A stretch of DNA of 64,000 nucleotides, from contig CAOKAE010000004.1 of NCBI GenBank assembly GCA_948466335.1, forward strand, positions 1,342 to 65,341, written 5' to 3'. Below the pieces are notes generated by a model. The model was not told the origin of the DNA. It did not search any database and worked only from the letters and a program-made list of their open reading frames with translations. The stretch is from an uncultured Coriobacteriia bacterium. Lineage in GTDB: Bacteria > Actinomycetota > Coriobacteriia > Coriobacteriales > QAMH01. Within the stretch, counting starts at the first letter, position 1. Every line of letters begins with the position of its first letter. The translations under genes were made by a program, and so were the position numbers. Shown here piece after piece: positions 155-61,579 of this stretch.

Positions 155-187
155 ATGAGACAAACATGTCAGACACATTTGTCTCAT
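155..187. repeat. ATGAGACA palindrome copy R1 (33 bp)
   Basis: ATGAGACAAAC-ATGTCAGACAC-ATTTGTCTCAT. Confidence 0.95.
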
Positions 188-203
188 TTATTAACGGTGC
201 CTG

Positions 204-1229
204 TTAGAGCAGCAGCGCCTCGGCAATCTGGACGGCATTGAGCGCCGCGCCCTTGCGAATCTGATCCATGACAAGCCAGAAGGCAAGGCCGCCCTCGACG
301 GTCGGGTCCTTGCGAATGCGACCGACAAACACGTCATCGGTTCCCTGCAACAAGCCGGGCATGGGATACACGTTGGCACCGGGGTCGTCCATGACCGTGA
401 CGCTCGCAGCCGCCTCGAATGCGGCACGGGCCTCGTCGGGCGTGACCGGCTTGATCAGCTCGACGTTCACGCTCTCGGCATGGCAGCGCAGCACTGGGAT
501 GCGCACGGCGGTCGGCGCGACCTTGATGCCGTCATCGCCGAAGATCTTGGCGGTCTCAACGACCATCTTCCACTCTTCCTTGGTGTAGGCGTCATCCATG
601 AACACATCGATGTGCGGGATGACGTTGAACGCGATCTGGTCGGAGAACGCCTCGACCGTAAGCTCTTCGTCGTTGAGGAACTGACGCGTCTGGTCGTAGA
701 GCTCGTTCATGGCCTTGAGGCCGGCGCCGCTGGCGGCCTGATACGTACTCACAACGACGCGCTTGATGCCACCGGCCAGGTCGTAGAGCGGCTTGAGGGC
801 GACGACCATCTCGATGGTCGAGCAGTTGGGATTGGCGATGACACCCGAATGCCACTCGAGATCACGGGCGTTGACCTCGGGCACCACGAGCGGCACGTCG
901 TCATCGGTGCGAAACGCGCTCGAGTTGTCAATCATGACGCAGCCGGCATCGACCACCGCCTGGCGATATGCCTTGGAAGTGTCGCCGCCGCAGGCGAAGA
1001 GCGCGATGTCGACGCCCTCGAAACTCGTCGGCGTCATCTCCTCGACCACGAGCTCGCCGTCCTTGAAGGGCACCGTGCTACCAGCGGAGCGCGCAGACGC
1101 GAGCGCCTTGACCTTCGCCGCCGGAAAACCGCGCTGCTCGAGCACCTTGAGCATCTCGCGACCGACGACACCCGTGGCACCGGCCACGGCAACGACGGGA
1201 TGTGCGGGCATAACCTTGTTCCAAGCCAT
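204..1229 (-). CDS. asd: Aspartate-semialdehyde dehydrogenase
   Basis: VAVAGATGVVG Rossmann motif, MIDNSSAFR, IANPNCST catalytic Cys, STYQAASGAG, DQIRKGAALNAVQIAE; start moved to MAWNKV. Confidence 0.97.
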   Translation of the reverse strand: MAWNKVMPAHPVVAVAGATGVVGREMLKVLEQRGFPAAKVKALASARSAGSTVPFKDGELVVEEMTPTSFEGVDIALFACGGDTSKAYRQAVVDAGCVMIDNSSAFRTDDDVPLVVPEVNARDLEWHSGVIANPNCSTIEMVVALKPLYDLAGGIKRVVVSTYQAASGAGLKAMNELYDQTRQFLNDEELTVEAFSDQIAFNVIPHIDVFMDDAYTKEEWKMVVETAKIFGDDGIKVAPTAVRIPVLRCHAESVNVELIKPVTPDEARAAFEAAASVTVMDDPGANVYPMPGLLQGTDDVFVGRIRKDPTVEGGLAFWLVMDQIRKGAALNAVQIAEALLL

Positions 1230-1297
1230 GTTCGTTCCTCTCGAGGCTATTTGAGACGTGCGAACAATGATACCGCAAGGCGGCCCCTGACACACCA

Positions 1298-1894
1298 CTA
1301 GAGCGCCATGGCGCGGGCAAGCTTGGAGAGCGGCTGTGCCTCGAGGCCGAAGCGCTCCTGCATCTGCCGCGCAAACGCGTGAAAGGCCTCCTCCGAGCCA
1401 ACCAGATGCTCGAGTTCGACTTCGTGTATGGGAGCCTTGCGCCCGTGATTGCGCATCTCTCCCACGTCAATCGCAAGCGCGGCCGTAAAGTCCGCACAAG
1501 TGAGCGTATGTTCGCGTCGCGTGAAGTCGGTCTCGCAGGTTGGCTGGGGGTCGCCCGCAATCAACATTTCGCAGATGTCCGCCGGCGCGCCGGCCGTGGG
1601 CAGCTGACGCAACCCCTCGATGACGTCATCGGCTCGAACCTCGAACTCCTGGCGCGCCTTGCATGCGCCGTCCGCGCTTGCCGCGAGCTTGAGGCAGCAG
1701 ACGCTCTCGTCGTTCTCCCGACGCACGCGCAGGCCACCTCGCAGCCGGTAGACGTCCTGATTTGCCGTATCGTAGTACGTCGCGCGCATATGAAGCTCAC
1801 GTGGCTCGCCCAACGCCGGCGCAATCACCTCATCATCGAGCAGCGCCCCGAGCGTCCGTTCGTCGGGCATCTCCCATTTGTACTCGATCTCCAT
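1298..1894 (-). CDS. CYTH domain protein (triphosphate tunnel metalloenzyme)
   Basis: N-terminal EIEYK (ExExK), YYDT, LRVR and EVELE motifs; SD GGAGGAGG. Confidence 0.9.
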   Translation of the reverse strand: MEIEYKWEMPDERTLGALLDDEVIAPALGEPRELHMRATYYDTANQDVYRLRGGLRVRRENDESVCCLKLAASADGACKARQEFEVRADDVIEGLRQLPTAGAPADICEMLIAGDPQPTCETDFTRREHTLTCADFTAALAIDVGEMRNHGRKAPIHEVELEHLVGSEEAFHAFARQMQERFGLEAQPLSKLARAMAL

Positions 1895-1909
1895 GACCCC
1901 TCCTCCGAA

Positions 1910-1940
1910 ACGAGACAAATGCTCTGTGCATTTGTCTCAT
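1910..1940. repeat. ATGAGACA palindrome copy R2 (31 bp)
   Basis: ACGAGACAAAT-GCTCTGTGC-ATTTGTCTCAT; contains the TGA stop (1937-1939) of the upstream flavoprotein gene. Confidence 0.9.
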
Positions 1941-3148
1941 GGGCGCTTGGTGGCTGCTGCCGTGCCGGCCGCGATGCCGCTTGCCCACGCCCAGTGCAGG
2001 TTGAAGCCGCCGCAGCGCCCGTCGATGTCAAGCGTCTCGCCCGCGGCGTAGATACCCGGACGCAGCTTCGACTCGAGCGTGAGCGCATCGAACTCCCATG
2101 GGGTGGCCCCGCCGCGCGTCACCTGGGCAAGGTTGGTTTCGGCAAGTCCCGTCACGTCCAGACGGAAGTCCTTGGCCGTCGCGGCGATCTTCGGCAGCGT
2201 CTTTGCCGTCGCCGGCTCGGAGGGCTTGAAGCCCGCAGCCCGTACGACGGCATCATTGATGCGCGTATGAAAACATCCGCACATGAGCTCGGTGAAGTTG
2301 GGCGTGCGCCCGAAAAGCTCGTTGACGCGCGCGGAAAGCGACGCGTACTTCGCCGAGAAGTAGTTGCTGCACTGACTGGGGCTGAGCTGCGGCAGGAAGT
2401 CGAGGCTCAGGACAGCGCCTGCGCCGACCTCGCGCGACATGTCGAAGATGACGATGCCCGACAGGCCGTAATCGCGAAACAGCACCTCCCCGTAGCGCAC
2501 GGCACGGGGATCGGTGGCGTCCTTATCGGCATAGGCGGTCACGCGCACCCGAGCGCGTACGCCCGAAAGGCCCTTGAGCGGCTTGGTGTCGGTCTTGAGG
2601 GGGCAGAGCACGGGCGAGAAGGGCTCGACCGTATGCCCGAAGACGGAGAGCAAGTCCGTGCCACCGCCCGTCGCGATGATGACGTTGTCAGCGTCGAACG
2701 TGCTCTTGTTCGTGCATGTGAGACGATAGCCAGGTTGCGCCGCGTCGATCTGCGCCACCTCCTGGCCGCAACGAACGTCGACGCTGTTCCACTTGCACGC
2801 ATCGCGCAACACGTCGAGCACCGTGTTGGCGGTATTCGAGAACGGGTAGATGCGTCCCTCGTCTTCCTCGGTCACGAGCAAGCCGAGCTCGCCGAAAAAG
2901 CCGAGCACGCGCGATGCGGGGTATTCCTCGAGAAGCGGCATGACGGCGGCGCCGTTATGGTAGTCGGTGAGCTGGATGTTGGCGTTGGTCATGTTGCAGC
3001 GCCCGTTGCCCGTCTTGAGGATCTTCTGGCCCACGCGCTTGCCGGCCTCGACGACCGTCACGGCCGCCCCTGCGCGCGCGGCGGAAATCGCCGCAACCAA
3101 GCCCGCGGCGCCGCCGCCAACCACCACGACCCGTACCTTGCCTGCCAT
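1937..3148 (-). CDS. HI0933/BaiN-like NAD(P)/FAD-dependent flavoprotein
   Basis: VVVGGGAAG, KILKTGNGRCNMTN, AQVTRGG, GETLDIDGRCGGFNLHWAWASG. Confidence 0.95.
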   Translation of the reverse strand: MAGKVRVVVVGGGAAGLVAAISAARAGAAVTVVEAGKRVGQKILKTGNGRCNMTNANIQLTDYHNGAAVMPLLEEYPASRVLGFFGELGLLVTEEDEGRIYPFSNTANTVLDVLRDACKWNSVDVRCGQEVAQIDAAQPGYRLTCTNKSTFDADNVIIATGGGTDLLSVFGHTVEPFSPVLCPLKTDTKPLKGLSGVRARVRVTAYADKDATDPRAVRYGEVLFRDYGLSGIVIFDMSREVGAGAVLSLDFLPQLSPSQCSNYFSAKYASLSARVNELFGRTPNFTELMCGCFHTRINDAVVRAAGFKPSEPATAKTLPKIAATAKDFRLDVTGLAETNLAQVTRGGATPWEFDALTLESKLRPGIYAAGETLDIDGRCGGFNLHWAWASGIAAGTAAATKRP

Positions 3149-3198
3149 CAATCGCCCCTTTCTTGCCTGTTTGCGCCCTAGTGTACCTGACCTGCACA

Positions 3199-3231
3199 AT
3201 GAGACAAATGTGTCAGACAAGTTTGTCTCAT
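3199..3231. repeat. ATGAGACA palindrome copy R3 (33 bp)
   Basis: ATGAGACAAAT-GTGTCAGACAA-GTTTGTCTCAT. Confidence 0.95.
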
Positions 3232-3232
3232 T

Positions 3233-3263
3233 AAAAAGAGACCCCGGAACTTTCCGGGGTCTC
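3233..3263 (-). terminator. Intrinsic terminator of the large surface protein gene
   Basis: GAGACCCCGGAA-CT-TTCCGGGGTCTC stem with AAAAA on its left side (a U-tract on the minus strand). Confidence 0.8.
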
Positions 3264-3288
3264 CTCGGGTGTCTATGCAGCCGGACGA

Positions 3289-6200
3289 CTATGCGCCGTG
3301 ACGGGCACGGGCCAGGGCGAGCTTCCTGTCGTGGCGCTTCAGAATCATGAGCACGATGAGCGCAACGATGGACAGACCCTCGAGGGCGAACAGCACGATG
3401 AAGGTCGTCGTGTTCTCGTCGCCCGTCTGGACGAAGGAGGCCAGCGGCACGCCGTCATCCAGAATCTCCTCGCCCACCGGCGTCATGTTGGTCGGCGTGC
3501 GCGGCAGGTAACTGCCGGGAGTCGTGGGGTTCGACGGCGTCGGGTCGGTGGGAGCCTGCGGCGTCAGCGGCTGGTCCGGGTCACCGGGCGTGCCGGGATC
3601 CTGCGGGTCGCTCGGCGGAGGCGTGGGGCCCGGCTCCTCGGGATCCTCGTCCCTGGGCGGCTGGGGATTCGCGTTGAAGAAGGTCACTGCAGCGTTGCCG
3701 TCGTCAAACTTGAGGAGCGCACCGGCGTTCTTGCCCGTCGTGCCCTTCTGGATCAGGGCGTCGAACTGCTGCTCCTGGGCCGTGGTGGCGGAGTAGATGT
3801 TCGCGTAGGCCACGTGGGCGAGGTAGAACTTCTTGCTCAGCTCCTCGTCCAGGGCAAGCTCGTTGACGACGATGAGCTCGTCGACATCCATCGACGTCGA
3901 TGGGATGCCCGTGAAGGTCATGGTCTCGTCATCCTTGAGCGTGAAGTACACCGCGTGGTCATCGCCCACGATGTACTCGGTCGTGGAGACGACCTTGCCC
4001 TCGTAGGTGGTGACCGTGCCCGTGATGACGGAACCGCTGATCAAATCGCCCTCGACGCCAATGGTCTCGGGCGAGATGATGGCCTCGAAGGGGAAGCGCT
4101 CGCCATTGTACGTGGTGCCCTGCACGAGGCTCTTGGTCACGCTAAAGCTCTTCGTGATGTCCTCGGGCTCGACGGGATACGCGGGCTCCTCGGGAATCCT
4201 GGCGTTCACGAACTTGACGCGCGTGTCACCGTCGGCGGTCAGCTGGCCATAGGTGCCCGCGGGCTTCAACATATCGGCGACCTTGTCCTCGGTGGCATCG
4301 AGACGCGTGTCCTTGGCAAGCTCGACGTACTTGAACTCGTAGCCCTCGACGGGGTTGCCCTTGGCGTCGACCGCCCCGAGCTCGTTGACGATGAACTTGC
4401 CAGACGGCGTGTCGAGGTCAACGTAGGGCAGCTTGGGGAAGCTGATGCTCTCGCCCGCCTTGAGCGAGAACTTGATCGTGTTGTCGGCGACCTTGTAAGT
4501 CGCGGACTGGACGCTACCGTTGGCACCGTAGGTGATGCCCTCGACTTCCGTGCCCTCCTCAAGGGTGTTGGGCGTGCCCTTGAAGGAAGGCGAGCTGATC
4601 AGCTCGAAGTTGAAGATGGTGCCATCCGGCTGGACCGCGCCCTCGAGTGCCTTGGAGACGGTAATCGCGGCATAGTCCACGCCACCGGCAGGCGGCAGCG
4701 GCTCGTCCGGCACGGGATCCTTCTGCTTGTTGTAGACCGTCGCGAGGGTCATGCCCTCGGGGATGGTCTGTCCTGCCGTTCCCTTGCCGACGAGACCCGC
4801 GACAGCCGCGCCATTCCATGCGGCCCCCTCGACAAGGTCGGTCTTCGAGTAGCTGTAGCCATATTCGGTCAGGGCCTCGCCCTCGAGCTCGTTGACGATG
4901 AACTTGCCCGCATCGCCATCGGCACGGGAGAAGGGCATCTTCGGGAACTCGATGCGCTGACCGGCCTTGAGCTTGAAGGTGATCCTCTGGTTCTCCATGG
5001 TGTAGGTGTTAAGAGCCTGCGTGCCATCGGCATCGTAGGTGATGCCATCGACCACCGTATCGGCAACCGCGTACTTCGTGCCAATCTGCTCGGGCGAGAT
5101 GATGAGCTCGAACTCGAAGTCGGTGTTGTCGGCCACGGCGTCATCACCCTCAAGGGCCTTGGCAATGGCCAGCGACTTGAAGGAGGGCGTCATCTTATTG
5201 AGGAAGAGCACCTCGGTGGCACGATACTCGGTGTCCTTATGACGGTATTCGGTCCAATTGGGCGTAATCGCATTGCCGTCTTTATCGAGATAGGACCCGA
5301 CTTGCTGGCACAGTGCGATAAACTTGCCATCTACGACATAGCCACCGCCCCTACTGGTTTCCGGAGAACTATCCGAGCTGACCTTATTGCCTTCTTTGTC
5401 GTAATAGACCCATCTACCATCCTGCCAGATGTTAATGTACCAGCTGGCCGGTGCCGGATCGGGACTGGTGTTGAAATATATCTGGCTGTAGTAGCAATCC
5501 GAAGGCAGCTGGGGATCGGCAACCTCATTGCCGTTTGCATCAAAGTACTTGTACACGTAGCCCCAGTCATCACTCGTGCAATTGGGGTTGGTCACCTCGT
5601 TGCCATCCGCATCGTAATATGCATACAGATAGTGCTCGTATGAATCGTACAGCGCCTTGGCGAGCGTGCCGGTGCTGGTGACGACATCGGTATAGGCCTT
5701 GTCCGTGGTCTCGTACTGCGCACCCTCGGTGACCAGCACCTTGGAGAAGCCGTAGCCAGCCTGCGCGGCAGCGCTATCATCGCCGATGAGCTCGTTGACG
5801 ACGAAGCCGCAGTCCGCATCTTTGTGGGCGAAGGGCATGTTCTCGAACACGATGCGCTGACCAGCCTTGAGCGAGAAGTTGACCTTGTGGTCCTGAATCG
5901 CGACGCTGACCTTGCCGGGAGTGGGAGTGCCGTCCCATTCCGTCGCGGCGGCCATGCCATTGATGAAGTACTTGTCGCCCTCACCCTTCACGGCCTGCAC
6001 GAGCGCGAGAGTCGCCTTGCCGTCCGCGTCATAGGTGACGTCATAGACGGTGCCCGTGACGGAAGTCACCGCGGAGCTGCCCTTGTCGATCTGGTTGTGC
6101 CTGTCGTTGGCGTACTGGGGCGAGACGATGAGCTCGTACTCGAACAGCGTGTCGCCAGAGGGCTCTGTTCCCGGCTCGAGCTGTTTCTCGACGGAAACCG

Positions 6201-6357
6201 GCTTTTGCATGGGGCTGTAGCTACTGTCCTCGTAGCCGTTTGCCACCGTGGCATAGAGCATGACCAGGCCAGCCAATACGGCCATGACCAACACTATGAC
6301 CAGGGGAAGTGCCCGCTTCTTGGTGGGTGCCACTGCACCGCTGCTCGTATTACCCAT
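3289..6357 (-). CDS. Large cell-wall-anchored surface protein with four Ig/pilin-like repeats
   Basis: N-terminal hydrophobic signal; four repeats of the form KxLEG..FxFELIISP..ITYDADG..FxLKAGQxIxF..FIVNEL; Pro/Asp-rich linker; VQTGD followed by a TM helix and a basic tail. Confidence 0.85.
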   Translation of the reverse strand: MGNTSSGAVAPTKKRALPLVIVLVMAVLAGLVMLYATVANGYEDSSYSPMQKPVSVEKQLEPGTEPSGDTLFEYELIVSPQYANDRHNQIDKGSSAVTSVTGTVYDVTYDADGKATLALVQAVKGEGDKYFINGMAAATEWDGTPTPGKVSVAIQDHKVNFSLKAGQRIVFENMPFAHKDADCGFVVNELIGDDSAAAQAGYGFSKVLVTEGAQYETTDKAYTDVVTSTGTLAKALYDSYEHYLYAYYDADGNEVTNPNCTSDDWGYVYKYFDANGNEVADPQLPSDCYYSQIYFNTSPDPAPASWYINIWQDGRWVYYDKEGNKVSSDSSPETSRGGGYVVDGKFIALCQQVGSYLDKDGNAITPNWTEYRHKDTEYRATEVLFLNKMTPSFKSLAIAKALEGDDAVADNTDFEFELIISPEQIGTKYAVADTVVDGITYDADGTQALNTYTMENQRITFKLKAGQRIEFPKMPFSRADGDAGKFIVNELEGEALTEYGYSYSKTDLVEGAAWNGAAVAGLVGKGTAGQTIPEGMTLATVYNKQKDPVPDEPLPPAGGVDYAAITVSKALEGAVQPDGTIFNFELISSPSFKGTPNTLEEGTEVEGITYGANGSVQSATYKVADNTIKFSLKAGESISFPKLPYVDLDTPSGKFIVNELGAVDAKGNPVEGYEFKYVELAKDTRLDATEDKVADMLKPAGTYGQLTADGDTRVKFVNARIPEEPAYPVEPEDITKSFSVTKSLVQGTTYNGERFPFEAIISPETIGVEGDLISGSVITGTVTTYEGKVVSTTEYIVGDDHAVYFTLKDDETMTFTGIPSTSMDVDELIVVNELALDEELSKKFYLAHVAYANIYSATTAQEQQFDALIQKGTTGKNAGALLKFDDGNAAVTFFNANPQPPRDEDPEEPGPTPPPSDPQDPGTPGDPDQPLTPQAPTDPTPSNPTTPGSYLPRTPTNMTPVGEEILDDGVPLASFVQTGDENTTTFIVLFALEGLSIVALIVLMILKRHDRKLALARARHGA

Positions 6358-6497
6358 ACGCCACCACCTTCTCACTTTCCGAAGAAGCGGATGAAGAGTC
6401 GCCCGTTTTGAGCGCCCCCGCCATCCAGGTTCGTTCCAACACCATGCCATTATCCCCGCTCAGGGCAAAGATAACGACAGTAATTCCAAGATAAATA

Positions 6498-7193
6498 TTA
6501 TAAGCGAGAGTTAACCTCGTTGGCAAGTTCGCCGAGCCTACCACTGAGGTACGGACCGGGACAAATCGTCTGGTCGTTGAACATGTTGTGAGTCGTCAAC
6601 GTCCCGTTGTCATCGCCCGTGTAGGTGAACTCCGTGATGCCGTTGCGCTTGCAGATGTCGACGAGGAGCTCGACGAGCCTATCGAAGGCAGCATCGCTCA
6701 CGTGCCAGTCACCGCCCACTTGGTCATTCGCCACCTCGATGGTGACGGCACGCTCGTCGTTGTCGCGGTTGCTCGATGTCCAGGCGCGATTCTTCTCCTC
6801 GACGTAGAGGGCGACGTTGCCCGCGCTGTCGATGGCGTAATGAGAGGACGCTCTCCTGTCACGATTGGCAAACCTGTTTCCAAGCTCCTCGAGCGAAAGG
6901 TCGCCAGCCATATGGTGAACGGTAATCCTGGTGATCGGCTCCTCGCGCGGAAAGTCGGCATTGGGACTGAGGAAGACGTAGTCCGTCAGCAAGCTGTTCT
7001 CGGCGATGACGTCCGCCTGCTCCTCGGCCGTGAGCACACGGCCCACGTTATCGGGCAGCGAGCGGTATTCCACGAGGCACAGCACGCCCACCGCAACCAC
7101 GAGCACGAGAAAGCCCACGAGCAGGATTATGGGGATGGCCCACGATTGCCTCGACTCCTCGCCCATGGCTCCCTCGTTTCCCTCGTTATCCAT
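6498..7193 (-). CDS. Membrane-anchored N-acetylmuramoyl-L-alanine amidase (Amidase_2)
   Basis: N-terminal TM helix; ITVHHMAG, ASSHYAID, AVTIEVAN, TTH..CPG zinc-amidase motifs. Start could instead be 7166. Confidence 0.88.
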   Translation of the reverse strand: MDNEGNEGAMGEESRQSWAIPIILLVGFLVLVVAVGVLCLVEYRSLPDNVGRVLTAEEQADVIAENSLLTDYVFLSPNADFPREEPITRITVHHMAGDLSLEELGNRFANRDRRASSHYAIDSAGNVALYVEEKNRAWTSSNRDNDERAVTIEVANDQVGGDWHVSDAAFDRLVELLVDICKRNGITEFTYTGDDNGTLTTHNMFNDQTICPGPYLSGRLGELANEVNSRL

Positions 7194-7210
7194 GACCTTG
7201 CCCACCTCCC

Positions 7211-8590
7211 CTAGAGTCCCATGGCGATGCATGCCGCGAGTGCCCCGAAGGCAAGCGCGCCCATGACGGCCAGCAGCTTGACCGGTGCGCCGTAGAGCAG
7301 CACGCCCGTCGTGCGCGGAGAACCCGCCGTCACCATCAGAAACGACGCGGTCACCGGGAAGAAGAAGCTCGTGTCAAGCATATTGTGAACGATGAAGGCC
7401 ACGAACGCGCCCCGTTGTGCGGGATCGCGGCGCTTGACGAAGAAGCGCACGACGATGACCAGCAGCATGAGCGCCGCGACGACACCCAGCTCGACGGCGA
7501 CGTGCAGCAGGCTGTTGTGGATGTGCCAGGTGTTGAAGTACAGGTCGCCGTCCATCATGTTCAGAACACGCCACTGGTACGGCCCGACCCCGAAGAGGGG
7601 GTTGAGGCCCAGGTACCCGATGCCGTTGGCGATCATGTCGAGGCGCTCGAGGAAGGTCGCGGGCGCGCTGCCGCGAATGAGCGCGGCTGCGACGGCAACG
7701 AGCGGCCCCAGGATGGCAAGCGGCGCCGTGAGGCGCATGTGCCCGCGCAGGAAGTCCTCCAAGCGGGGCCAGAACGCCACAAGCGCGACCAGGTAGGCGA
7801 GCGTGACGACGTTGAAGGGCGGCAAGTCACCCCAGGAAGGCACCAGGTACAGGCAGATGCCCGTGCCCACGCCGATCACGAGCTTCACGATCGTGACGGC
7901 GGCATCGGCAAGCACCGCGCCCCAGGTCCGGCCACGCTTGGCATAGAGCAGCATGACGACGAGGCCGATGACGAGCGCGCCGAAGCTCCCGAGTGAGAGG
8001 GTGAGCGCAAGCGACACCAGCACGAGGGGCTCGCCGTGACGCAGGATGCGGTCGACCATGCCGTCACCCTTGAGGCCGAGCAGCGCAAACCAACCGATGA
8101 CCATGAAGATGCCAAGGGCGTTGGCGCCGCCCAGCGGCCAACCCAGACGCGAGACCGTCCCGCCGAAGGCAGCGACGACGAAGATGCCGATGCCAATGGT
8201 GGCCGCGAGCACGATCCACGCCACGCTCGCCCGGCGCAAAAAGCGCGCCTCGTCCTCGTCCATGCTGGCAACGGCCAGGTAGACGGCAAGCAGTATCGCC
8301 TGCACGCAGACATAGCCTTCCGTCAGCGTACCGTAGGTGCGAAGGGAGCCGTATCCGCTGAGCACGATGTAGATGAGCAGCGGAACGAAGATCCACAGGT
8401 CGAGCTTCATGCTGCGCCTGGTGAGCAGCGCGACGCAGAGCATGAGCCCCAGAACGCACACCATCTGGGCGTTTCCTACGCCGGTGAACGAAAGCGCGAT
8501 GATGACGAGCAGCGTGCACAGCGCGACGCAGTTGTCGTTCGCGAACTGCACGACATCGAAACGCGGCGTTTTGACAGCGGTGCTCGCCAT
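7211..8590 (-). CDS. O-antigen ligase/polymerase (Wzy_C)-like membrane protein
   Basis: About 12 TM segments; ERLDM..NPLFGVG and HIHNSLLHVAVELG motifs. Confidence 0.8.
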   Translation of the reverse strand: MASTAVKTPRFDVVQFANDNCVALCTLLVIIALSFTGVGNAQMVCVLGLMLCVALLTRRSMKLDLWIFVPLLIYIVLSGYGSLRTYGTLTEGYVCVQAILLAVYLAVASMDEDEARFLRRASVAWIVLAATIGIGIFVVAAFGGTVSRLGWPLGGANALGIFMVIGWFALLGLKGDGMVDRILRHGEPLVLVSLALTLSLGSFGALVIGLVVMLLYAKRGRTWGAVLADAAVTIVKLVIGVGTGICLYLVPSWGDLPPFNVVTLAYLVALVAFWPRLEDFLRGHMRLTAPLAILGPLVAVAAALIRGSAPATFLERLDMIANGIGYLGLNPLFGVGPYQWRVLNMMDGDLYFNTWHIHNSLLHVAVELGVVAALMLLVIVVRFFVKRRDPAQRGAFVAFIVHNMLDTSFFFPVTASFLMVTAGSPRTTGVLLYGAPVKLLAVMGALAFGALAACIAMGL

Positions 8591-15255: not shown

Positions 15256-15288
15256 ATGAGACAAATTGGTCAGACACATTTGTCTCAT
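15256..15288. repeat. ATGAGACA palindrome copy R4 (33 bp)
   Basis: ATGAGACAAAT-TGGTCAGACAC-ATTTGTCTCAT. Confidence 0.95.
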
Positions 15289-15376: not shown

Positions 15377-15409
15377 GTGGGGCAGATTGGCTAGGCCAAT
15401 CTGCCCCAC
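15377..15409. repeat. Covarying GC-rich variant of the ATGAGACA palindrome (33 bp)
   Basis: GTGGGGCAGATTGG-CTAGG-CCAATCTGCCCCAC; same length and layout as R7. Confidence 0.8.
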
Positions 15410-15411
15410 AA

Positions 15412-15442
15412 ATGAGACAAATACACTGTGTATTTGTCTCAT
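15412..15442. repeat. ATGAGACA palindrome copy R5 (31 bp)
   Basis: ATGAGACAAAT-ACACTGTGT-ATTTGTCTCAT, 3 bp from the purH stop codon. Confidence 0.95.
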
Positions 15443-23211: not shown

Positions 23212-23244
23212 ATGAGACAGATGTGTCTGACCAAACTGTCTCAT
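23212..23244. repeat. ATGAGACA palindrome copy R6 (33 bp)
   Basis: ATGAGACAGAT-GTGTCTGACCA-AACTGTCTCAT; overlaps the TAA stop at 23244-23246 by one base. Confidence 0.95.
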
Positions 23245-25907: not shown

Positions 25908-25924
25908 AGGTATCCGCTCCTTTC

Positions 25925-26058
25925 TGCTCTCTCATCCGGACTGTAACCGTCGGCTCCAGACTCTCACTGGATCGGCCCTCCCAAAGGAGAGTTAGCGGGC
26001 TGCGCGGCGACCATGGCCGCTTACCGCCGGTGGGGAATTCCACCCCGCCTTGAACAGA
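25925..26058 (-). promoter_or_regulatory. FMN riboswitch (RFN element)
   Basis: Minus strand reads TTCAAGGCGGGGTGGAATTCCCCACCGGCGGT..AGCCCGC..GATCCAGTGAGAGTCTGGAGCCGACGGTTACAGTCCGGATGAGAGAG, matching the RFN consensus. Confidence 0.95.
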
Positions 26059-26127
26059 TGCAACGAACAGTATAGCCATTGCGTCTATAATGGGCGCGAC
26101 AATTTGGTAACGGCGAAAGAAGCGGAC

Positions 26128-27416: not shown

Positions 27417-27504
27417 ATGAGACAGATTGGTCAGACCAATCTGTCTCATTATCTACAGGAACCGATATCAAATGAGACAAATGTGTCAGACACATCTGTC
27501 TCAT
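27417..27504. repeat. ATGAGACA palindrome doublet R7+R8 with 22-bp linker
   Basis: Copies at 27417-27449 and 27472-27504, between convergent genes. Confidence 0.95.
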
Positions 27505-31969: not shown

Positions 31970-31990
31970 GCCAGCGACATAGGCGCGGCA

Positions 31991-32020
31991 CGGGGGGGCG
32001 TCCTACGGGGCGCCCCCTCG
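31991..32020 (+). terminator. GC-rich hairpin between convergent genes
   Basis: GGGGGCGTCC-TAC-GGGGCGCCCCC followed by TCGTTAAAA. Confidence 0.55.
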
Positions 32021-32025: not shown

Positions 32026-32056
32026 ATGAGACAAATACCCTGTGTATTTGTCTCAT
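32026..32056. repeat. ATGAGACA palindrome copy R9 (31 bp)
   Basis: ATGAGACAAAT-ACCCTGTGT-ATTTGTCTCAT. Confidence 0.95.
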
Positions 32057-34072: not shown

Positions 34073-34160
34073 ATGAGACAGTTTGGTCAGACACGTTTGT
34101 CTCATTACGAGCGGGTGCCGGTAGATAATGAGACAAACGTGTCTGACCAATTTGTCTCAT
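34073..34160. repeat. ATGAGACA palindrome doublet R10+R11 with 22-bp linker
   Basis: Copies at 34073-34105 and 34128-34160. Confidence 0.95.
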
Positions 34161-55079: not shown

Positions 55080-55115
55080 AGTGCGAATCCCCAAGCCATG
55101 AAGGAGGTGAGGCTG

Positions 55116-55959: not shown

Positions 55960-56082
55960 AAGACACCTCCGCTCTGTCGTCATTGCTATCATACCAAGTA
56001 AGCTAAAGAGAAAGCATAGTTTTCATAATATTTTATGCAAATTTTATAGACAAAGTATCCGCTGCAATCGAGAGGAGGCCTC

Positions 56083-56607
56083 ATGAACGCACGTGAAATT
56101 TATCTCGCTGGTGGGTGCTTCTGGGGCACCGAGGCGTACTTGAAGAAGCTGCCTGGCGTCATAGACACAGAAGTCGGCTACGCGAATGCAAACGTGTGTG
56201 GCCCCTCCTACGAGGACGTATGCACGGGTGCAACAGATGCGGCCGAGGCCGTGAAGGTCACGTACGACGCCGATATCATCTCATTACCTCTGCTCTTGCA
56301 GGCCTATCTACGCACCATCGATCCGTTCTCACTCAACCGCCAGGGCAACGATGTAGGCACGCAGTATCGCACCGGCATCTACTGGGCGGACCCGGATGAT
56401 GAGCGTGCGGTGGAGTCGACGCTTATCGGGATTGCCCGCAGGGCCGGAAAGCAGCCAGCCGTGGAAGCTGCTGCGCTCACGAACTTCTATCCGGCAGAAG
56501 GCTATCACCAGGATTACCTTGGCAAGAACCCCTTTGGATATTGCCATGTGAACCTCGCGGATGCCGATGCGTTCATCGCCGAACATGCGACGGATTTTGG
56601 AGCTTAA
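56083..56607 (+). CDS. msrA: Peptide-methionine (S)-S-oxide reductase
   Basis: LAGGCFWG, GYAN, YEDVC, QYRTGIY, AEGYHQDYL..YCH. Confidence 0.96.
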   Translation: MNAREIYLAGGCFWGTEAYLKKLPGVIDTEVGYANANVCGPSYEDVCTGATDAAEAVKVTYDADIISLPLLLQAYLRTIDPFSLNRQGNDVGTQYRTGIYWADPDDERAVESTLIGIARRAGKQPAVEAAALTNFYPAEGYHQDYLGKNPFGYCHVNLADADAFIAEHATDFGA

Positions 56608-56621
56608 GTTAAGGAGCCATA

Positions 56622-56969
56622 ATGTCATTTGCAGAAGTGTGCATATATCAAGTAAAGCCGCAGAGGGTCGAGGAATTCGAAACACTCATGCAAGAGGCTA
56701 AAGGGCTCCTCGAGCAGCAACCCGGTCTCTTGTCGCTTCGTCTCATCAAGCGCGGATATCGCATCGACATGGAGCAAATTCGCGATGGCCTGCCGCCCAT
56801 CAAACTCACACGCGTCGTGAAGAGCGTGAAGTACGTGCTCGTCTGGGAATTCGATTCGAAGGAAAGCTACGGACTAGCCCAGAAAGCCCTATACGAAAGC
56901 TATTGGAAGCCCATCGAGCGCTGCCTCATAGCGCCCCATGACAAGTATCTCGGCGAAAGCCTGTTTTAG
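56622..56969 (+). CDS. ABM-like dimeric alpha/beta barrel hypothetical protein
   Basis: YQVKP..EEFE, PGLLS, YVLVWEF pattern; located in the msrA operon. Confidence 0.65.
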   Translation: MSFAEVCIYQVKPQRVEEFETLMQEAKGLLEQQPGLLSLRLIKRGYRIDMEQIRDGLPPIKLTRVVKSVKYVLVWEFDSKESYGLAQKALYESYWKPIERCLIAPHDKYLGESLF

Positions 56970-56981
56970 TAAGGAGTCGTT

Positions 56982-57359
56982 ATGTCCAACGAAATCCTGT
57001 TTCTGGAATATCCGAAATGCTCTACCTGCAAGAAGGCCAAGAAGTGGCTCGACGAGCATGACGTGAGTTATACGGCGCGTCACATCGTGGAGGACAATCC
57101 CAACGTCGACGAGCTTCGCGCATGGCACAAGCGCAACGGACTCCCCCTCAAACGCTTCTTCAATACGAGCGGCATGTTGTATCGCGAGATGGAACTGTCG
57201 AAGAAACTGCCGGATATGAGCGAGGATGAACAATATGCCCTGCTCGCCAGCAACGGCATGTTCGTGAAACGCCCGCTGCTGGTGACCGATACGACGGTGA
57301 TTCCCGGCTTCAAAGAAACGACATGGGAGCAGGCGCTAGGGCTTAGCAATAGAAACTGA
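56982..57359 (+). CDS. ArsC/Spx family (YffB/YusI-like) protein
   Basis: CSTCKKAKKWL, FFNTSG, KRPLLV. Confidence 0.92.
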   Translation: MSNEILFLEYPKCSTCKKAKKWLDEHDVSYTARHIVEDNPNVDELRAWHKRNGLPLKRFFNTSGMLYREMELSKKLPDMSEDEQYALLASNGMFVKRPLLVTDTTVIPGFKETTWEQALGLSNRN

Positions 57360-57617
57360 TGTCGCCTTGGAATGTCTCGCGCCATCTTTCACAAATGTAA
57401 TCGTGATTCAAAGAAATCAGCTCGAGCAAATCAGCCAGGTCGTCTTTAGGAATCCTGCTTTTGTTGTGAGCAAGCAGGCAACCCCCGAAGAGGTCAGCCA
57501 AACCTTTGTCGCATTTTCTTCAGGGCGTTTTTTGGAAATGTGGACATGAACCGGTTCGCCATTCTCCCCAACCCAAAAGAAAAGGATATAGGCGCCGAAC
57601 TGGAGTACTTTAGGCAC
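57343..57617 (-). pseudogene. DUF4160 family (HicA-like) gene frameshifted in a G5 tract
   Basis: EPVHVH..ATKVWLTSS continues as GCLLAHNKSRIP..ICERWRETF..FYC* in another frame; one extra G at 57482-57486 restores 91 codons. Confidence 0.75.
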
Positions 57618-57870
57618 AGACTTTGCCCGCCTCCCGCGAGAAGCGGTAAATCAAAGGAGCGTTGTTCTTAATGATAGTCGCAAGGTCATTGAGTTCTGCC
57701 TCCGAGAATCCTTCAGAATCGCTCCATTCGCAAGGTGGCAAATAGCACGTCGCGTAATCGAAGCCACCGTCAATCGGGCGTTCGACAGAGACCTGAATGG
57801 TACTATCTTCCAGAATGTTCGAGCAGGCAATCTGCGTATCATCTGCAAGCTTGAGATAGTTGTACATCAT
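57610..57870 (-). CDS. Hypothetical protein, probable partner/antitoxin of the DUF4160 gene
   Basis: SD AAGGAGG; acidic, 86 aa; overlaps the DUF4160 start by 8 bp. Confidence 0.75.
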   Translation of the reverse strand: MMYNYLKLADDTQIACSNILEDSTIQVSVERPIDGGFDYATCYLPPCEWSDSEGFSEAELNDLATIIKNNAPLIYRFSREAGKVCA

Positions 57871-57972
57871 CGCAAACAACCTCCTTTCAGCTTCAACTTA
57901 CTCATTATAGCTACTTCAAGCACGCAGACTATCGGCAAGAAATATCGAGTGACGTGGGAGCAAGCGCTAAAT

Positions 57973-58524
57973 CTATAGCCCCAACCTTGCGAGCAGCAGC
58001 TTGGCCTGCGTTGCCAGAGCCTCCCGCTCTTCAGAAGCGAGCTCGAGTTCGTCAGTCGTGTAGTCGTGGCGATTGAGCGCCACCTGAACGTGCGTGGTCT
58101 CCACCAAATCCGTCTGGAGAAACGAAAGCGTCTCGGCAAGGTCGGCTGCGCAGAAACGCGCCTTCGCACCGCCACCCGCACAACTGTAGAGCGTTGGCTT
58201 TTCCTGCATGACCGTTTCCTTCGAACCTTGCGCAATCGGACGTGACAGCCAATCGAGGCAATTCTTCAGCACGCCGGGAATGCCGTGGTTGTACTCGGGT
58301 GCGAAGACCCAGATCGCATCAGCTGCGGCAACCGCATCGCGCACGCGCTGCACGGACTCGGGCGTGGGAAACTCCATATCCTGGTTCATGTAGGGCAAGT
58401 CGGCATAGTCAAGCCAGCTGACCTGCACCGATGCGGGCAATAGACCGCGCACGTATTCGCCTACCTGACGATTGAGCGAGCGCTTGCGAAGTGATCCGCA
58501 GATGAACAGCACGTTCTTTTGCAT
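57973..58524 (-). CDS. NADPH-dependent FMN reductase
   Basis: GSLRKRSLN, PEYNHGIPGVLKNCLDWLSR. Confidence 0.93.
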   Translation of the reverse strand: MQKNVLFICGSLRKRSLNRQVGEYVRGLLPASVQVSWLDYADLPYMNQDMEFPTPESVQRVRDAVAAADAIWVFAPEYNHGIPGVLKNCLDWLSRPIAQGSKETVMQEKPTLYSCAGGGAKARFCAADLAETLSFLQTDLVETTHVQVALNRHDYTTDELELASEEREALATQAKLLLARLGL

Positions 58525-58566
58525 GAGACACCTTTCGCCGGATTATCTTCCGACGAATATGATACG

Positions 58567-59028
58567 TCATGCGCGCAGTTGCTTCTCCATGATTTCGTAC
58601 ACGAGCTTCACGTCATTGCCAACATCGAGCACGCCGTGACCCGTTGTCTTGTAGCCCCGATGCTCGTATAGCATCACCGCAGGTAGCGACGCATCCAACA
58701 CGGCGATGTCATGCTCGCGCGCGATGTGCTCCTCCAGACAATCGAGAATATGCGAACCATAGCCGCGCCCCTGGTGCTCGGGAAGCACGTAGACGCTCGT
58801 GATGTGATTGCCATCGGCGCAACCCACGCCAACGACCTTGCCCTCGACCAGCAGCACGCCTCTATTGCCGGATTCGACACCTTCTTGGGTATGCTCGCGA
58901 CCATGGAGCTGCAGGAAGAAATCGACAACTTCGGCCGGATAGTACTTGGGATATACCGTGCTGATCGTCGTCTGCATGACGTGATGAATTGCATCGATAT
59001 GTTCAGAAGTTGCCGGTATGTACTCCAC
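58567..59028 (-). CDS. GNAT N-acetyltransferase
   Basis: YVLPEHQGRGYG, ASLPAVMLYEHRGY; GTG start with SD GGAGG. Confidence 0.88.
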   Translation of the reverse strand: MEYIPATSEHIDAIHHVMQTTISTVYPKYYPAEVVDFFLQLHGREHTQEGVESGNRGVLLVEGKVVGVGCADGNHITSVYVLPEHQGRGYGSHILDCLEEHIAREHDIAVLDASLPAVMLYEHRGYKTTGHGVLDVGNDVKLVYEIMEKQLRA

Positions 59029-59047
59029 AAGGGCCTCCGTACGCTGC

Positions 59048-59581
59048 CTACAACACGTACTCGAACATATCGAGGTCGACCATGCCCAGATCATCGTAGA
59101 AGACCGGATGCGCGCCATGATTGATGAAGCCGAGCTTGTCGTAGAGCCCGTGCGAGCGCACGTTGTCGACGAAGGTGTCGAGCTGCAAAGCGCGCAGGCC
59201 GTCCTCGCGTGCCACGTCGATGGCAAACTCCATGAGCCTCGACGCATAGCCACGTCCGTGATAGGCCGGACGCGTGGCGACCGAATGCACGATGCCCAGC
59301 TCCTCGAGCGGTGCGTCCACCTCCCAGGGAGCCTTCTCGTAGCCAGGGGCCCTGTCGTGGTTGACGACGAGCGCCGTCGCGATGTCGCCATCGCCGGTGA
59401 TGCCGATGAACATCTGGCCATTCTCCACGGACTCGCGCAAATGCGCGTCAGTCGGGTGCTTGTCATGCTGCCAGAGGATGTCGAAGTCCGTCCCCTGCAT
59501 CTCCTCGATCATGTTGTAGTAGAAGTCCATGACGGCATCCTTGTCCGTCAGCGCTGCCCTGCGCGTCAAAAGGAACCCCAT
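59048..59581 (-). CDS. GNAT N-acetyltransferase
   Basis: VATRPAYHGRGYA, NVRSHGLYDKLGF. Start could instead be 59593. Confidence 0.88.
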   Translation of the reverse strand: MGFLLTRRAALTDKDAVMDFYYNMIEEMQGTDFDILWQHDKHPTDAHLRESVENGQMFIGITGDGDIATALVVNHDRAPGYEKAPWEVDAPLEELGIVHSVATRPAYHGRGYASRLMEFAIDVAREDGLRALQLDTFVDNVRSHGLYDKLGFINHGAHPVFYDDLGMVDLDMFEYVL

Positions 59582-59697
59582 CACCACCCCCATCGTTCGT
59601 GGCCTTTGCTACAGAATAGCCGCTTGTGCGGCAATGTAACAGAGGCCGTCCCGTGGGACGGCCTCTGTCGCTAAGAGCTCATGTAAACGGGGGCGCA

Positions 59698-60837
59698 TTA
59701 CTCGCGCTTGATGGTATCGACCTCGACGTCGGTTTCGTTGGCGTCCTTCCTCACGTACACGAAGCCCAGCTCGCCGTCCACGGGCAGCTCGTTGTAAGCG
59801 ACCATCTCGGCAATCTCGGCCGGCGTGGCGCTCTTGGGCTCGGTCTCGAGCAGGTAAGCAACGGGAGCGCGGCGCTCCATGGCCTCACGGTACTCCTTGG
59901 TGCCCACGAAGACCTCATGCTTGTACGGGTTGACGTGCAGCTTCTTGGCACGGTAGATGATGTAGCCGAGTGCCAGGATGTTGGCAATCAAGGCGATGGA
60001 GGCGACCACGGTGTTGACCGCCGGGTCGTTCACCGACTGCACCGCGAAGATGGAGTCGTTGGCGAACATGGGCACCATCTGGCAGAACATGCACCACATC
60101 GAGAGAGTAAACGCACGGTTCTGGATCCAACCGCCCTTGTTCCAGATGAGGCCGGCGATGGTCGGTGCCAAAAGGAGCGCAATGCCACAGTACCAAGAAT
60201 GCGTCGGCAGGCAGTTGTAGGTGTAGCAGAAGTTCCAGAGGTCGTAGGCGATGATGAAGACCCACGTCATGTCGGGCCACAGCATGTCCTGGCGCTTCTT
60301 GGAGATGTAGATGCCGAACCAGCCGGTCATGCACAGGATGTTGAGCAGGCCCGCGCAGCCGTTGAGGACGTTGAAGATGCCGCCGTTGAGCAGCACGCCC
60401 TCGTCGGTGACGAAGCTGGAGTCCCAGGCCACGACGGCGCTCTCGAAGTCGCTCGCGACCGCGATCAGGATGTTGATGGCCACGATCACGAACGGGAACG
60501 CCTTGAACCAGTGGGACCTGCCGACCTTGCCCCAACTGTACTTGAGGGCCATGAAGCCGATGCATCCCGCCGTCGCGGCGTACACCTTGGCGTAGTGGAA
60601 CCAGCCGCCCATGGTCTGGTAGGTGGGGTTGTTGAGCGCCCATTCGGCACCCATGGCGGCGCCCACTTCCACGGCAATGCAGTACACGGTCATGAAGCCG
60701 CACACGCCGATGAACATGAATATGCCGCCTGCCTTCGTGCGTCGGGCAAATTCGTTGAGCAGGATGAGCGCGACGAGCACCATGATGAGGCCCGTCCATT
60801 GGAATGGGGCGTTGGCCCCGTAAACGTCGAATAGCAT
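59698..60837 (-). CDS. DUF5692 family membrane protein
   Basis: WFHYAKVYAATAG, INILIAV, DMLWPDM, YDLWNFCY, WIQNRA; SD AAGGAGG. Confidence 0.85.
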   Translation of the reverse strand: MLFDVYGANAPFQWTGLIMVLVALILLNEFARRTKAGGIFMFIGVCGFMTVYCIAVEVGAAMGAEWALNNPTYQTMGGWFHYAKVYAATAGCIGFMALKYSWGKVGRSHWFKAFPFVIVAINILIAVASDFESAVVAWDSSFVTDEGVLLNGGIFNVLNGCAGLLNILCMTGWFGIYISKKRQDMLWPDMTWVFIIAYDLWNFCYTYNCLPTHSWYCGIALLLAPTIAGLIWNKGGWIQNRAFTLSMWCMFCQMVPMFANDSIFAVQSVNDPAVNTVVASIALIANILALGYIIYRAKKLHVNPYKHEVFVGTKEYREAMERRAPVAYLLETEPKSATPAEIAEMVAYNELPVDGELGFVYVRKDANETDVEVDTIKRE

Positions 60838-60853
60838 TTCAATCCCTCCTTGC

Positions 60854-61450
60854 TTAGGACCTATCGAGATGGAGTGTCTGGGCAATTACGTCGGCGATGA
60901 TGGCGTCGTCGGCATCCGGATGCTTGCGCAGATATCCAATCACACCGAGCACGAGCACGTAGAACGTCTCGTACAGGTGCTGAATCCGTATGTCATGCAG
61001 TTCCGCATAGTCGCGGACGGTGGTGTCGATGATGTAGCGCGTGGTCTCATCTGCCACGCGATTCACGAACTCGAGGTAAAGCGCGGCATTCTCGCGCGAC
61101 GAGAGCGCGACGTGGAAGGCATCGTCTTCGAACAGGCCGATACGCAGAAGCTTGACGATCGTGCGGAGCGCGTGGTCGACGTCGCCTTCGATGCGCCCTT
61201 CATTCCAGAGCTCGAGGGCTTCGATGTAGTCCTGGATATAGTCGTCGAGGACGGCGGAAGTGACGGCATCTTTGTCGGGGAAGTAATGATAGAAGAGCGT
61301 GCGCGTGACTCCGACACGTTCCGTGATGTCCTTCACGGTCGTGCGTGAAAGACCGCGTTCCTCGTAGAGTTCGCGCGCCGCTGCAACGATTTCCAACCGA
61401 CGTGTATCGCTGCGACTTGCCGATATGTCAGCTGTGTTCTCCACGCTCAC
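60854..61450 (-). CDS. TetR family regulator
   Basis: TTVKDITERVGVTRTLFYHYFPDK HTH. Confidence 0.93.
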   Translation of the reverse strand: MSVENTADISASRSDTRRLEIVAAARELYEERGLSRTTVKDITERVGVTRTLFYHYFPDKDAVTSAVLDDYIQDYIEALELWNEGRIEGDVDHALRTIVKLLRIGLFEDDAFHVALSSRENAALYLEFVNRVADETTRYIIDTTVRDYAELHDIRIQHLYETFYVLVLGVIGYLRKHPDADDAIIADVIAQTLHLDRS

Positions 61451-61474
61451 TCCCCGTCCCTCAATCCGCGTATT

Positions 61475-61529
61475 AGGCTATCGCGGCAGTCGACACGGGG
61501 TCAATGAACACAATTGACGAAACGTCAAT
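61475..61529 (-). promoter_or_regulatory. Promoter with two TTGAC-N5-GTCAA type dyads
   Basis: Perfect ATTGACG-AAA-CGTCAAT (61513-61529) and degenerate GTCGAC-N5-GTCAAT (61489-61505), the latter overlapping -35 TTGACC; -10 TAGCCT at 18-bp spacing. Confidence 0.65.
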
Positions 61530-61546
61530 GAGACGCAGGCAGGCAA

Positions 61547-61579
61547 ATGAGACAATTTGGTCAGACACATTTGTCTCAT
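61547..61579. repeat. ATGAGACA palindrome copy R12 (33 bp)
   Basis: ATGAGACAATT-TGGTCAGACAC-ATTTGTCTCAT. Confidence 0.95.

Follow-up and report, generated by a model that had tools for sequence, protein, structure and literature searches.

What are the 12 short palindromes that recur along a 64,000-nucleotide stretch of DNA from an uncultured Coriobacteriia bacterium (GenBank assembly GCA_948466335.1, contig CAOKAE010000004.1, positions 1,342 to 65,341 of the forward strand; hereafter the window), and why do they sit so close to the ends of genes? An earlier note, made from the letters alone, took them for a lineage-specific family like the repetitive extragenic palindromic (REP) sequences spread by REP-associated tyrosine transposases (RAYTs), acting on mRNA 3' ends or mobilised in trans. 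The likeness to REPs stands: the copies are short, dispersed, extragenic and hairpin-forming, and some are arranged as inverted doublets. We lean towards reading the 12 elements as a hairpin family of the REP/REPIN type (that is, of terminal inverted repeat, or TIR, repeats), copied by a Y1 enzyme in trans and kept at gene boundaries.

The window was scanned with the pattern ATGAGACA-N15/17-TGTCTCAT. Eleven exact matches were obtained, against 0.01 expected from dinucleotide shuffles, with starts at 155, 3199, 15256, 15412, 23212, 27417, 27472, 32026, 34073, 34128 and 61547. A twelfth copy, at 1910, was recovered when mismatches were allowed; its single mismatch turns one end into ACGAGACA. 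All 12 copies listed in the earlier note were thus found again, and they are called here R1 to R12 in order of position. A looser scan of the window (AGACA-N11-25-TGTCT) returned the same 12 copies and no degenerate extras. The bare 8-mer occurs 24 times in the window against 1.6 expected, and 23 of these occurrences lie within elements, the lone outsider being at position 58523. Nine copies are 33 bp long, with the form ATGAGACA-N6-TCWGA-N6-TGTCTCAT and the centre GTCWGAC, and three are 31 bp long with the centre NCTGT, in agreement with the division into nine and three made before. The base at -1 is A in 12/12 copies and the base at +1 is T in 11/12; since these two bases are constant, the palindrome is really 33-35 bp long. 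The flanks had been described as often TA, which is true on at least one side in seven window copies but on both sides in only three, the constant feature being the A at -1 and the T at +1.

Each unit is laid out as A-ATGAGACA, an inner arm of 6-7 nt, a centre of 1-5 nt, a second inner arm and TGTCTCAT-T. The 8-nt ends are the conserved tag, and the inner arms are species-specific. Neither a GTAG nor a CGTC tag is present in the elements, both ends carrying ATGAGACA/TGTCTCAT. The window inner arms take the forms TTGG/CCAA, TGTG/CACA and CGTG/CACG, in complementary or non-complementary combinations, and the centre base (A or T) tracks the orientation of the element. The elements are therefore not the strict palindromes they were first taken for: in many of them the inner arms do not complement each other, and this confers an orientation. 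When asymmetric, a unit joins an inverted partner 9-24 nt away in a long REPIN-like hairpin. R11, for example, is the reverse complement of R10 save 2 nt, and RNA folding of this doublet gave one long hairpin of -61 kcal/mol, a REPIN-like architecture. Folded singly, symmetric units reached -18 to -24 kcal/mol and asymmetric units -10 to -15 kcal/mol, and the z-scores of the elements ranged from -3 to -9.

Covariation was analysed in a set of 36 distinct 31-mers. Double changes were seen at each of the six variable stem positions, and pairing was found in 82% of cells, compared with 31-52% when the partner column was slid. Roughly half of the distinct sequences lack symmetry, and it is they that stand in inverted doublets. 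Compensatory variants exist even in the ends, namely ACGAGACA/TGTCTCGT and ATGATACG/CGTATCAT. Inverted doublets were also found at nine further loci, and other metagenomes contain more copies of the window species, doublets among them. Candidatus Olsenella pullistercoris has doublets (L029:1464-1543; L049:4659-4738 and 7011-7082, the L numbers being our handles for loci) in which a normal unit faces a unit ended by ATGATACG/CGTATCAT; the interior is the same in both units and the loop is opposite. The matched ends of the second unit indicate that the tag change is compensatory.

Mouse-gut and rat-gut metagenomes hold 99% of the window's words, and identical variants are present at three loci of the metagenome-assembled genome (MAG) 'uncultured Coriobacteriia bacterium MGG04558'. 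A scan of 596 Gb with one genome per species gave at least 117 loci, with about 400 chance matches expected; matches in unrelated phyla that have no palindromic interior are of the chance kind. Most of the listed loci come from Coriobacteriia and combine the same ends with lineage-typical interiors: AAAGGGA-NNN-TCCCTTT in Olsenella, Tractidigestivibacter and Atopobiaceae, GTTGCTC-N-GAGCAAC and the asymmetric GTTGCTC-A-GGGACGT in Collinsella-like genomes, and other interiors in further lineages. Among the nearer relatives, one with 96% PurH identity (L138) has the interiors GCGTCTCAGAGACGC and GCGAGACTGAGCGTT, one with 91% has GCGTGCCTGGCACGC plus an N19 form, and one with 84% (L136) has no copy in 18 kb. 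Several Clostridia and other Bacillota also hold the family, singly and as tight inverted doublets. The label 'lineage-specific' consequently fits the interior but not the 8-nt ends, which are common to Coriobacteriia families and some Clostridia. Close relatives also have a second type of hairpin, (C)CAGACA-N19-TGTCTG(G) or ATGAGACA-N19-TGTCTCAT with the centre GCCCCGG, just past stop codons (L138:3780-3820, L138:20430-20475, L135:3251-3285). It may be a sister sub-family with a longer interior.

We then turn to the enzyme that would mobilise such elements. Gene calls, Pfam labels and our own scans found no transposase of any class encoded in the window, and hence no Y1/RAYT gene, as the earlier note had remarked. 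A tblastn search with E. coli RayT hit a single locus, L117, from a Clostridial MAG that also has dispersed copies. The open reading frame (ORF) found there encodes 253 aa and matches Y1_Tnp; its best NCBIfam model is the REP-associated tyrosine transposase, with 74 bits (cut-off 80) against 24 bits for IS200. Taken together, the Clostridial proteins (about 250 aa) match PF01797 over residues 11-122 and score 64-74 bits with NF047646 against 19-24 bits with IS200. The L117 protein has 505 homologues, and the precomputed Pfam hits of some of these include helix-turn-helix (HTH) families.

The flanks of the L117 gene are an inverted pair of elements, ATGAGACAGTTGGGACAGTCCTAATTTGTCTCAC at 4290-4322 and GTGAGACAAATTAGAACTGTCCCTATTGTCTCAT at 5241-5273. 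At five loci from four Clostridial lineages (L117, L261, L262, L282, L284), a single-copy Y1_Tnp+HTH gene was found between recD2 and comFC with an inverted element pair as its flanks. Three Clostridial genomes besides that of L117, with 51-58% identity, share this gene position and the flanking pair; in a more distant relative (L263, 46% identity) the hairpin found there is a different one. The Clostridial gene with its flanking pair has the arrangement of a REPtron or TIRtron and fits the published TIRYT description. TIRtrons contain Y1+HTH genes, termed TIRYT, with flanking repeats that share the core GGGGWSAS (Di Nocera 2013, PMC3733652), and TIRYT corresponds to subclass 2.1 of TnpA_REP, with a Y1 domain and a C-terminal HTH (Quentin 2018, PMC6006769). 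GGGACAG or GGGGACAG is present in the flanks of the Clostridial gene and in the Olsenella variants, and matches this core at 7-8 of 8 positions. The suggested search for a RAYT gene flanked by the repeats succeeded in Clostridia but not in the window or in about 2 Mb of Coriobacteriia DNA; the link to a RAYT-type transposase could thus be shown in Clostridia alone, and for the window organism mobilisation in trans is inferred.

The genes together with their bracketing elements span L117:4290-5273, L261:2865-3853, L282:9840-10885 and L284:9875-10887, in genomes of about 25% G+C. The upstream element of the pair overlaps recD2 at its end, and the downstream element falls within the annotated comFC start, where it encodes ...RQIRTVPIVS.... 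Other genes bracketed by two copies were considered as transposases and rejected, as they are ordinary or accessory genes (TrmB-like, SDR, Fic, GIY-YIG-like/ATPase). Two Atopobiaceae metagenome contigs (L151:1216-2531 and L182:1006-3143) carry a Fic-domain gene and the gene of a 718-aa protein with a GIY-YIG-like N-terminus and an ATPase, each between two copies; both genes, of accessory or defence type, appear to be framed by repeats.

Comparison of orthologous spacers, which had been proposed as a check, showed both R2 and R6 to be missing in close relatives. R2 is absent from its site in L138, where the C-terminus of the protein is kept, and R6 from its site in three relatives that encode the same C-terminus. 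At the site of R4, upstream of a gene for a 214-aa protein, the L138 copy has a different interior. Finer changes were seen within the spacer 27417-27504 of strains L118-L127, which is otherwise 100% identical: in one strain the centre base of R7 is flipped (T/A), and in another the inner arm CACA of R8 has become CCAA, a 2-nt patch matching its neighbour. These strain changes suggest hairpin-driven inversion and short-patch conversion. In other lineages, two Collinsella genomes with flanks 99% identical differ by a filled or empty stretch of 48 bp that holds an element and is bounded by the direct repeat TGCGA, a 24-bp segment that places an additional copy within an older one distinguishes two Atopobiaceae genomes, and in two Collinsella-like genomes the interior of the copy at a shared site is inverted. 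Presence or absence of copies and changes of their interior both show turnover of the family.

The position of the copies was examined on a gene map of the window assembled from gene calls and Pfam labels of identical metagenome contigs, together with our own scans. The copies and their surroundings are as follows.

R1, 155..187: 33 bp, in a convergent spacer, 16 nt past the asd stop (204) and 80 nt past the stop (74) of a GGGtGRT-family gene.
R2, 1910..1940: 31 bp, with the end mutated to ACGAGACA; it fills the 42-bp spacer between an FAD_binding_2 gene and a CYTH gene, its own TGA (A-TGA-GACA) ends the FAD gene, and the ribosome-binding site of the CYTH gene lies 3 nt beyond the element.
R3, 3199..3231: 33 bp, asymmetric, directly after the intrinsic terminator of a DUF7601 gene (hairpin 3238-3263 and T-run) and about 50 nt upstream of an FAD_binding_2 start, at the edge of a 5.3-kb three-gene segment absent in relatives.
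R4, 15256..15288: 33 bp, asymmetric, 15 nt upstream of the start of the 214-aa gene, abutting its ribosome-binding site.
R5, 15412..15442: 31 bp, a near-perfect palindrome, 3 nt past the purH stop, beside a GC-rich terminator-like hairpin at 15377-15409.
R6, 23212..23244: 33 bp, asymmetric; its last base completes the TAA stop of a 133-aa gene, which is the last stop of an ECF riboflavin transporter operon (RibU, two EcfA and the 133-aa protein).
R7 and R8, 27417..27504: a doublet with a 22-nt spacer that folds as two separate hairpins, in a convergent spacer between an aspartate aminotransferase gene (stop 27414) and a 138-aa gene (stop 27515).
R9, 32026..32056: 31 bp, in a convergent spacer, 3 nt past the stop of an Oxidored_FMN gene; a GC-rich hairpin at 31990-32017 lies next to it, downstream of a rhodanese gene.
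R10 and R11, 34073..34160: an inverted doublet with a 22-nt spacer; the last base of R11 completes the TAA stop of an ABC2 membrane gene.
R12, 61547..61579: 33 bp, asymmetric, 8 nt past the stop of an ABC-F type ATPase gene (61588-63162, minus strand).

On this map all 12 copies lie in intergenic spacers, which bears out the description of them as intergenic or overlapping a stop. The tendency to hug stop codons is real, with nine copies (R1, R2, R5, R6, R7, R8, R9, R11 and R12) at most 16 nt from a stop where 4.2 are expected under uniform placement in the same spacers (P=0.002); it does not extend to R3, R4 and R10, which are not near stops, R10 being the inner half of a doublet and lying away from them. 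The earlier count of eight copies within 16 bp becomes nine on the gene map. The overlap with stops claimed for three copies is complete for R2, which contains the TGA, but amounts to a single base of the TAA in R6 and R11. R1, R7, R8 and R9 occupy three convergent spacers and the other eight copies are found between genes that share a strand; neither of the two divergent spacers of the first 38 kb contains a copy.

Placement was further analysed in 89 copies from Coriobacteriia loci. In this set, 53 ORFs whose codon bias resembles that of coding sequence remain open at a point 30 nt before the element. Of these, 18 stop at the TGA of the element and three at a TAA using its first A, and at most seven read through, several of which are antisense shadows; frame-blind insertion would give about two read-throughs per in-frame stop. 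GTAG REP ends also often supply the stop codon of the neighbouring gene (PMC3733652). On the other side, start codons lie 13-22 nt past the element in 18 of 34 cases, and the element then abuts the ribosome-binding site. Orientation relative to the upstream gene is random (17:16), without bias relative to transcription. In the window alone the orientations split 10 to 2, numbers too small for a judgement on a preference for one replication strand. Tandem, convergent and divergent copies number 36, 15 and 11, against spacer-length shares of 57, 18 and 25% (crude gene calls), so that depletion from divergent spacers is weak (11/62 copies, where divergent spacers make up 25% of the length), and true divergent cases are present. 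For these reasons specificity for 3' ends was dropped. The exclusive tie to mRNA 3' ends envisaged at first does not hold, many copies abutting ribosome-binding sites and some lying in divergent spacers: the elements hug gene boundaries of both kinds. In RNA-like runs the locus is present at a depth of 0-2, as assembled contigs.

Some features of the surrounding DNA can be described here. The first 38 kb of the window hold 11 copies, about one per 3.5 kb of core genome, and the stretch from 35 to 61 kb is free of copies. About 23 kb following a tRNA-Gly(CCC) gene (38006-61500) are repeat-free and have a G+C content of 0.55-0.60 against 0.63-0.66. The accessory genes found there encode a nucleotidyltransferase, TetR regulators, a nitroreductase, a UvrA-like ABC protein, a macro-domain protein, two AAA_14/DUF4143 ATPases, GNAT acetyltransferases, MsrA and DUF5692. 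An integrase was not observed in this part of the window, which is probably acquired or variable DNA. The segment next to R3 (3289-8590) encodes a DUF7601 surface-type protein, Amidase_2 and Wzy_C between BcrAD/DUF2229 and FAD_binding_2 genes, and is absent from this place in L138 and L136. An FMN riboswitch (100.8 bits) lies at 25920-26061 on the minus strand, upstream of the ECF riboflavin transporter operon.

How would such a distribution arise? We propose that a Y1 (HUH) tyrosine transposase of the RAYT/TIRYT type, working in trans, copies the elements in the form of single-stranded DNA hairpins, and we infer that an enzyme related to the Clostridial one moves them in this Coriobacteriia genome. 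Copies would survive only where they are harmless, in short spacers at gene ends. As one frame of the element end reads TAA-TGA, a copy landing on or in the last codons would still terminate the gene, and a preference for A/T-rich sites is likely in a genome of 63% G+C; these two properties would explain why copies hug stops, ribosome-binding sites and the T-runs of terminators. After insertion, hairpin-driven processes would homogenise and reshuffle the copies, and centre flips, interior inversion, short conversion patches and deletions between flanking short direct repeats are the changes observed. Once transcribed, the hairpins might plausibly hinder RNA decay or, at the stop codon, put a brake on translation, in the manner of E. 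coli REPs; such an effect at the RNA level would be secondary and co-opted.

Several observations weigh against this reading. The 48-bp and 24-bp indels are both bounded by short direct repeats, so that each may be a deletion by slippage and not an insertion. Empty-site joints were not seen among strains of the window species in the contigs of eight metagenome runs; the joints present in the contigs of these runs only reflect copies elsewhere in the genome, and contig-end artefacts in L130 and L133 were discarded from the comparison. Five Atopobiaceae genomes keep one copy, with identical stem and different loops, upstream of the same ribosome-binding site. As the flanks of this copy have diverged, its conservation indicates selection or conversion rather than recent movement. 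The window variants (GGTCAGAC, ACACTGTG) match GGGGWSAS at 6/8 positions at best.

The enzyme itself is a further difficulty. Neither the window nor about 2.0 Mb of Coriobacteriia loci with about 270 copies yielded a Y1/HUH ORF, whether searched by tblastn with E. coli RayT and the Clostridial protein or by a six-frame scan for the motif HUH...Y..NP; these loci, chosen because they hold copies, are loci rather than whole genomes and did not include the recD2/comFC region. Within the Coriobacteriia set, the metagenome scan aimed at the Olsenella variant covered 120 loci with 170 copies. The best 150 cluster representatives of the Clostridial enzyme (E<=4.5e-30) include none with the amino-acid make-up of a high-G+C genome, and a scan of viral contigs found no Y1/RAYT. 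With neither a Y1/HUH ORF in the loci nor a high-G+C representative, a close homologue of the Clostridial enzyme is probably absent from Coriobacteriia. In Actinobacteridae, other high-G+C Actinobacteria, a published survey that does not name Coriobacteriia lists only Y1 genes of the IS200 type (PMC6006769).

A bolder form of the proposal, which we put forward tentatively and think doubtful as a whole, is that the repeats represent a third 'tagged' superfamily of REP type. Its bilateral ATGAGACA/TGTCTCAT tag would be found in two phyla of gut anaerobes, with a domesticated Y1+HTH enzyme as its reader; in Coriobacteriia the family would have grown to hundreds of copies, inserting preferentially at exact coding boundaries (stop codon or ribosome-binding site) as operon punctuation. 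The Coriobacteriia partner enzyme may then be very divergent or unrecognised, or there may be no resident one.

Among the explanations that dispense with transposition, the one that survives best, although we hold it to be unlikely, regards the elements as RNA hairpins selected by the host: bidirectional terminators, barriers to 3'/5' exonucleases, or brakes at stops and ribosome-binding sites, whose similarity is kept by selection and gene conversion. The stable hairpins, the sites at gene ends and in convergent spacers, the A-rich 5' arm and U-rich 3' arm and the orthologous copy with identical stem kept across Atopobiaceae genera all agree with it, and E. coli REPs near stops are reported to stall ribosomes, according to work cited in PMC12306157. 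The resemblance to intrinsic bidirectional terminators, which also place a hairpin between A-rich and U-rich arms in convergent spacers, does not go further, for a standard scan detects a GC-rich stem plus U-tract in no element. Consensus scans for promoters and terminators placed nothing on the elements, the terminator scan reporting only the neighbouring hairpin 15377-15409. R3, R5 and R9 each adjoin a canonical GC-rich terminator-like hairpin (3238-3263, 15377-15409 and 31990-32017), R3 lying past the T-run; at these places the repeats are thus an addition to ordinary terminators, not a substitute for them. Copies also occur in divergent spacers, single asymmetric units make poor folds, and orientation is random relative to transcription. 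Identical 8-nt ends at hundreds of unrelated sites and the species-wide replacement of interiors require copying. An Rfam search placed the elements in no RNA family: only the FMN riboswitch and tRNA pass the gathering threshold, and permissive hits are the noise of generic hairpins (miRNA).

Copying by a different kind of enzyme is very improbable in our view. The elements would then be minimal MITEs (miniature transposable elements with inverted repeats) of a TA-duplicating DDE transposon of the IS630/mariner type, with two terminal inverted repeats back to back and a transposase that binds double-stranded ends. The TA dinucleotides beside seven copies, on both sides in three, fit this scheme, as does R6, which sits exactly on the TA of a stop codon conserved in relatives. 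Like Correia elements and bacterial MITEs in general, the repeats have inverted ends, TA flanks in some copies, intergenic sites and transcript hairpins. In other lineages, however, the flanks are GA/TC, AA/TT or CA/TG and extend the palindrome instead of forming direct repeats, and a direct target duplication was not seen other than repeats of TA, which is its own complement. The window scans found no solo ends and no full-length parent element; the window has no transposase gene, and where a gene is linked to the repeats it encodes a Y1 enzyme. MITEs are 70-300 bp long, far above 31-33 bp, with distinct terminal repeats, true target duplication and an origin in DDE insertion sequences, features not seen here. 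Least probable of all is an operator for a dimeric DNA-binding protein (a regulon, nucleoid or recombinase site with GACA/TGTC tetrads as half-sites), for which the invariant outer 8-mers, the two-fold symmetry with GACA...TGTC four times in the 33-bp form and the copies just upstream of genes can be cited, and against which stand the density of copies in the core genome, functionally unrelated neighbour genes, copies in convergent spacers that have no promoter, co-varying and species-specific interiors, sites present or absent between close relatives and the lack of any promoter-like match overlapping a copy.

A hairpin family of this type would matter in several ways. To our knowledge, work on REP-type repeats and their domesticated transposases has been confined almost entirely to Proteobacteria; such a family, dense in Coriobacteriia, which include the drug-metabolising Eggerthellaceae, would extend the REP phenomenon to Gram-positive gut anaerobes. 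The repeats account for the breaking of assemblies of these genomes at gene ends and distinguish native from acquired DNA. They can serve as markers of strains and species, the interior differing even between species with 96% PurH identity. If it is true that the elements shape mRNA ends or translation at stops and ribosome-binding sites, they would be relevant to the engineering of these poorly tractable bacteria.

As to known systems, no named family matches in Rfam or in the literature searched by sequence string or topic, in keeping with the earlier note, whose author recognised none. The REP/REPIN and RAYT (TnpA_REP) systems of Proteobacteria share with the present elements imperfect palindromes of 20-40 bp that are dispersed outside genes in many copies, a sequence peculiar to each species, inverted doublets folding into a single long hairpin and ends that supply the stops of neighbours; the Clostridial loci add a single-copy Y1 gene whose chromosomal site is fixed and whose flanks are inverted copies. 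They differ in that the tag is here 8 nt long and on both ends, with no GTAG (or CGTC), in that the hosts are Gram-positive anaerobes, with no enzyme found in the Coriobacteriia loci searched, and in that the Clostridial enzyme has a C-terminal HTH and, at 74 bits, falls just short of the curated RayT cut-off of 80. CGTC-tagged REPs and Rickettsia palindromic elements are also abundant short palindromes whose dedicated transposase was not found, but their tag and hosts are other, and the Rickettsia elements insert in frame inside genes, whereas the elements described here are extragenic or end genes.

The closest described class is that of the TIR repeats and TIRtrons, relatives of REP/RAYT (PMC3733652, PMC6006769). 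As in TIRtrons, a Y1+HTH gene lies between inverted repeats that have a GGGGWSAS-like core in the Olsenella and Clostridial variants, and as here some TIRtron repeats are self-complementary and form moderately abundant families with dimers. Unlike the described cases, mostly from Proteobacteria and Acidobacteria, the present repeats are short full palindromes with a ATGAGACA tag, very dense in Coriobacteriia, and the strict core is lost in the window. The 2018 survey found no REP-like sequences beside subclass 2.1 genes (PMC6006769); short palindromic repeats tied to such Y1+HTH (TIRYT) proteins would give them a concrete repeat partner. What is new here is a family whose bilateral 8-nt tag and hosts are unlike those of the GTAG and CGTC superfamilies, within a kind of element that is known.

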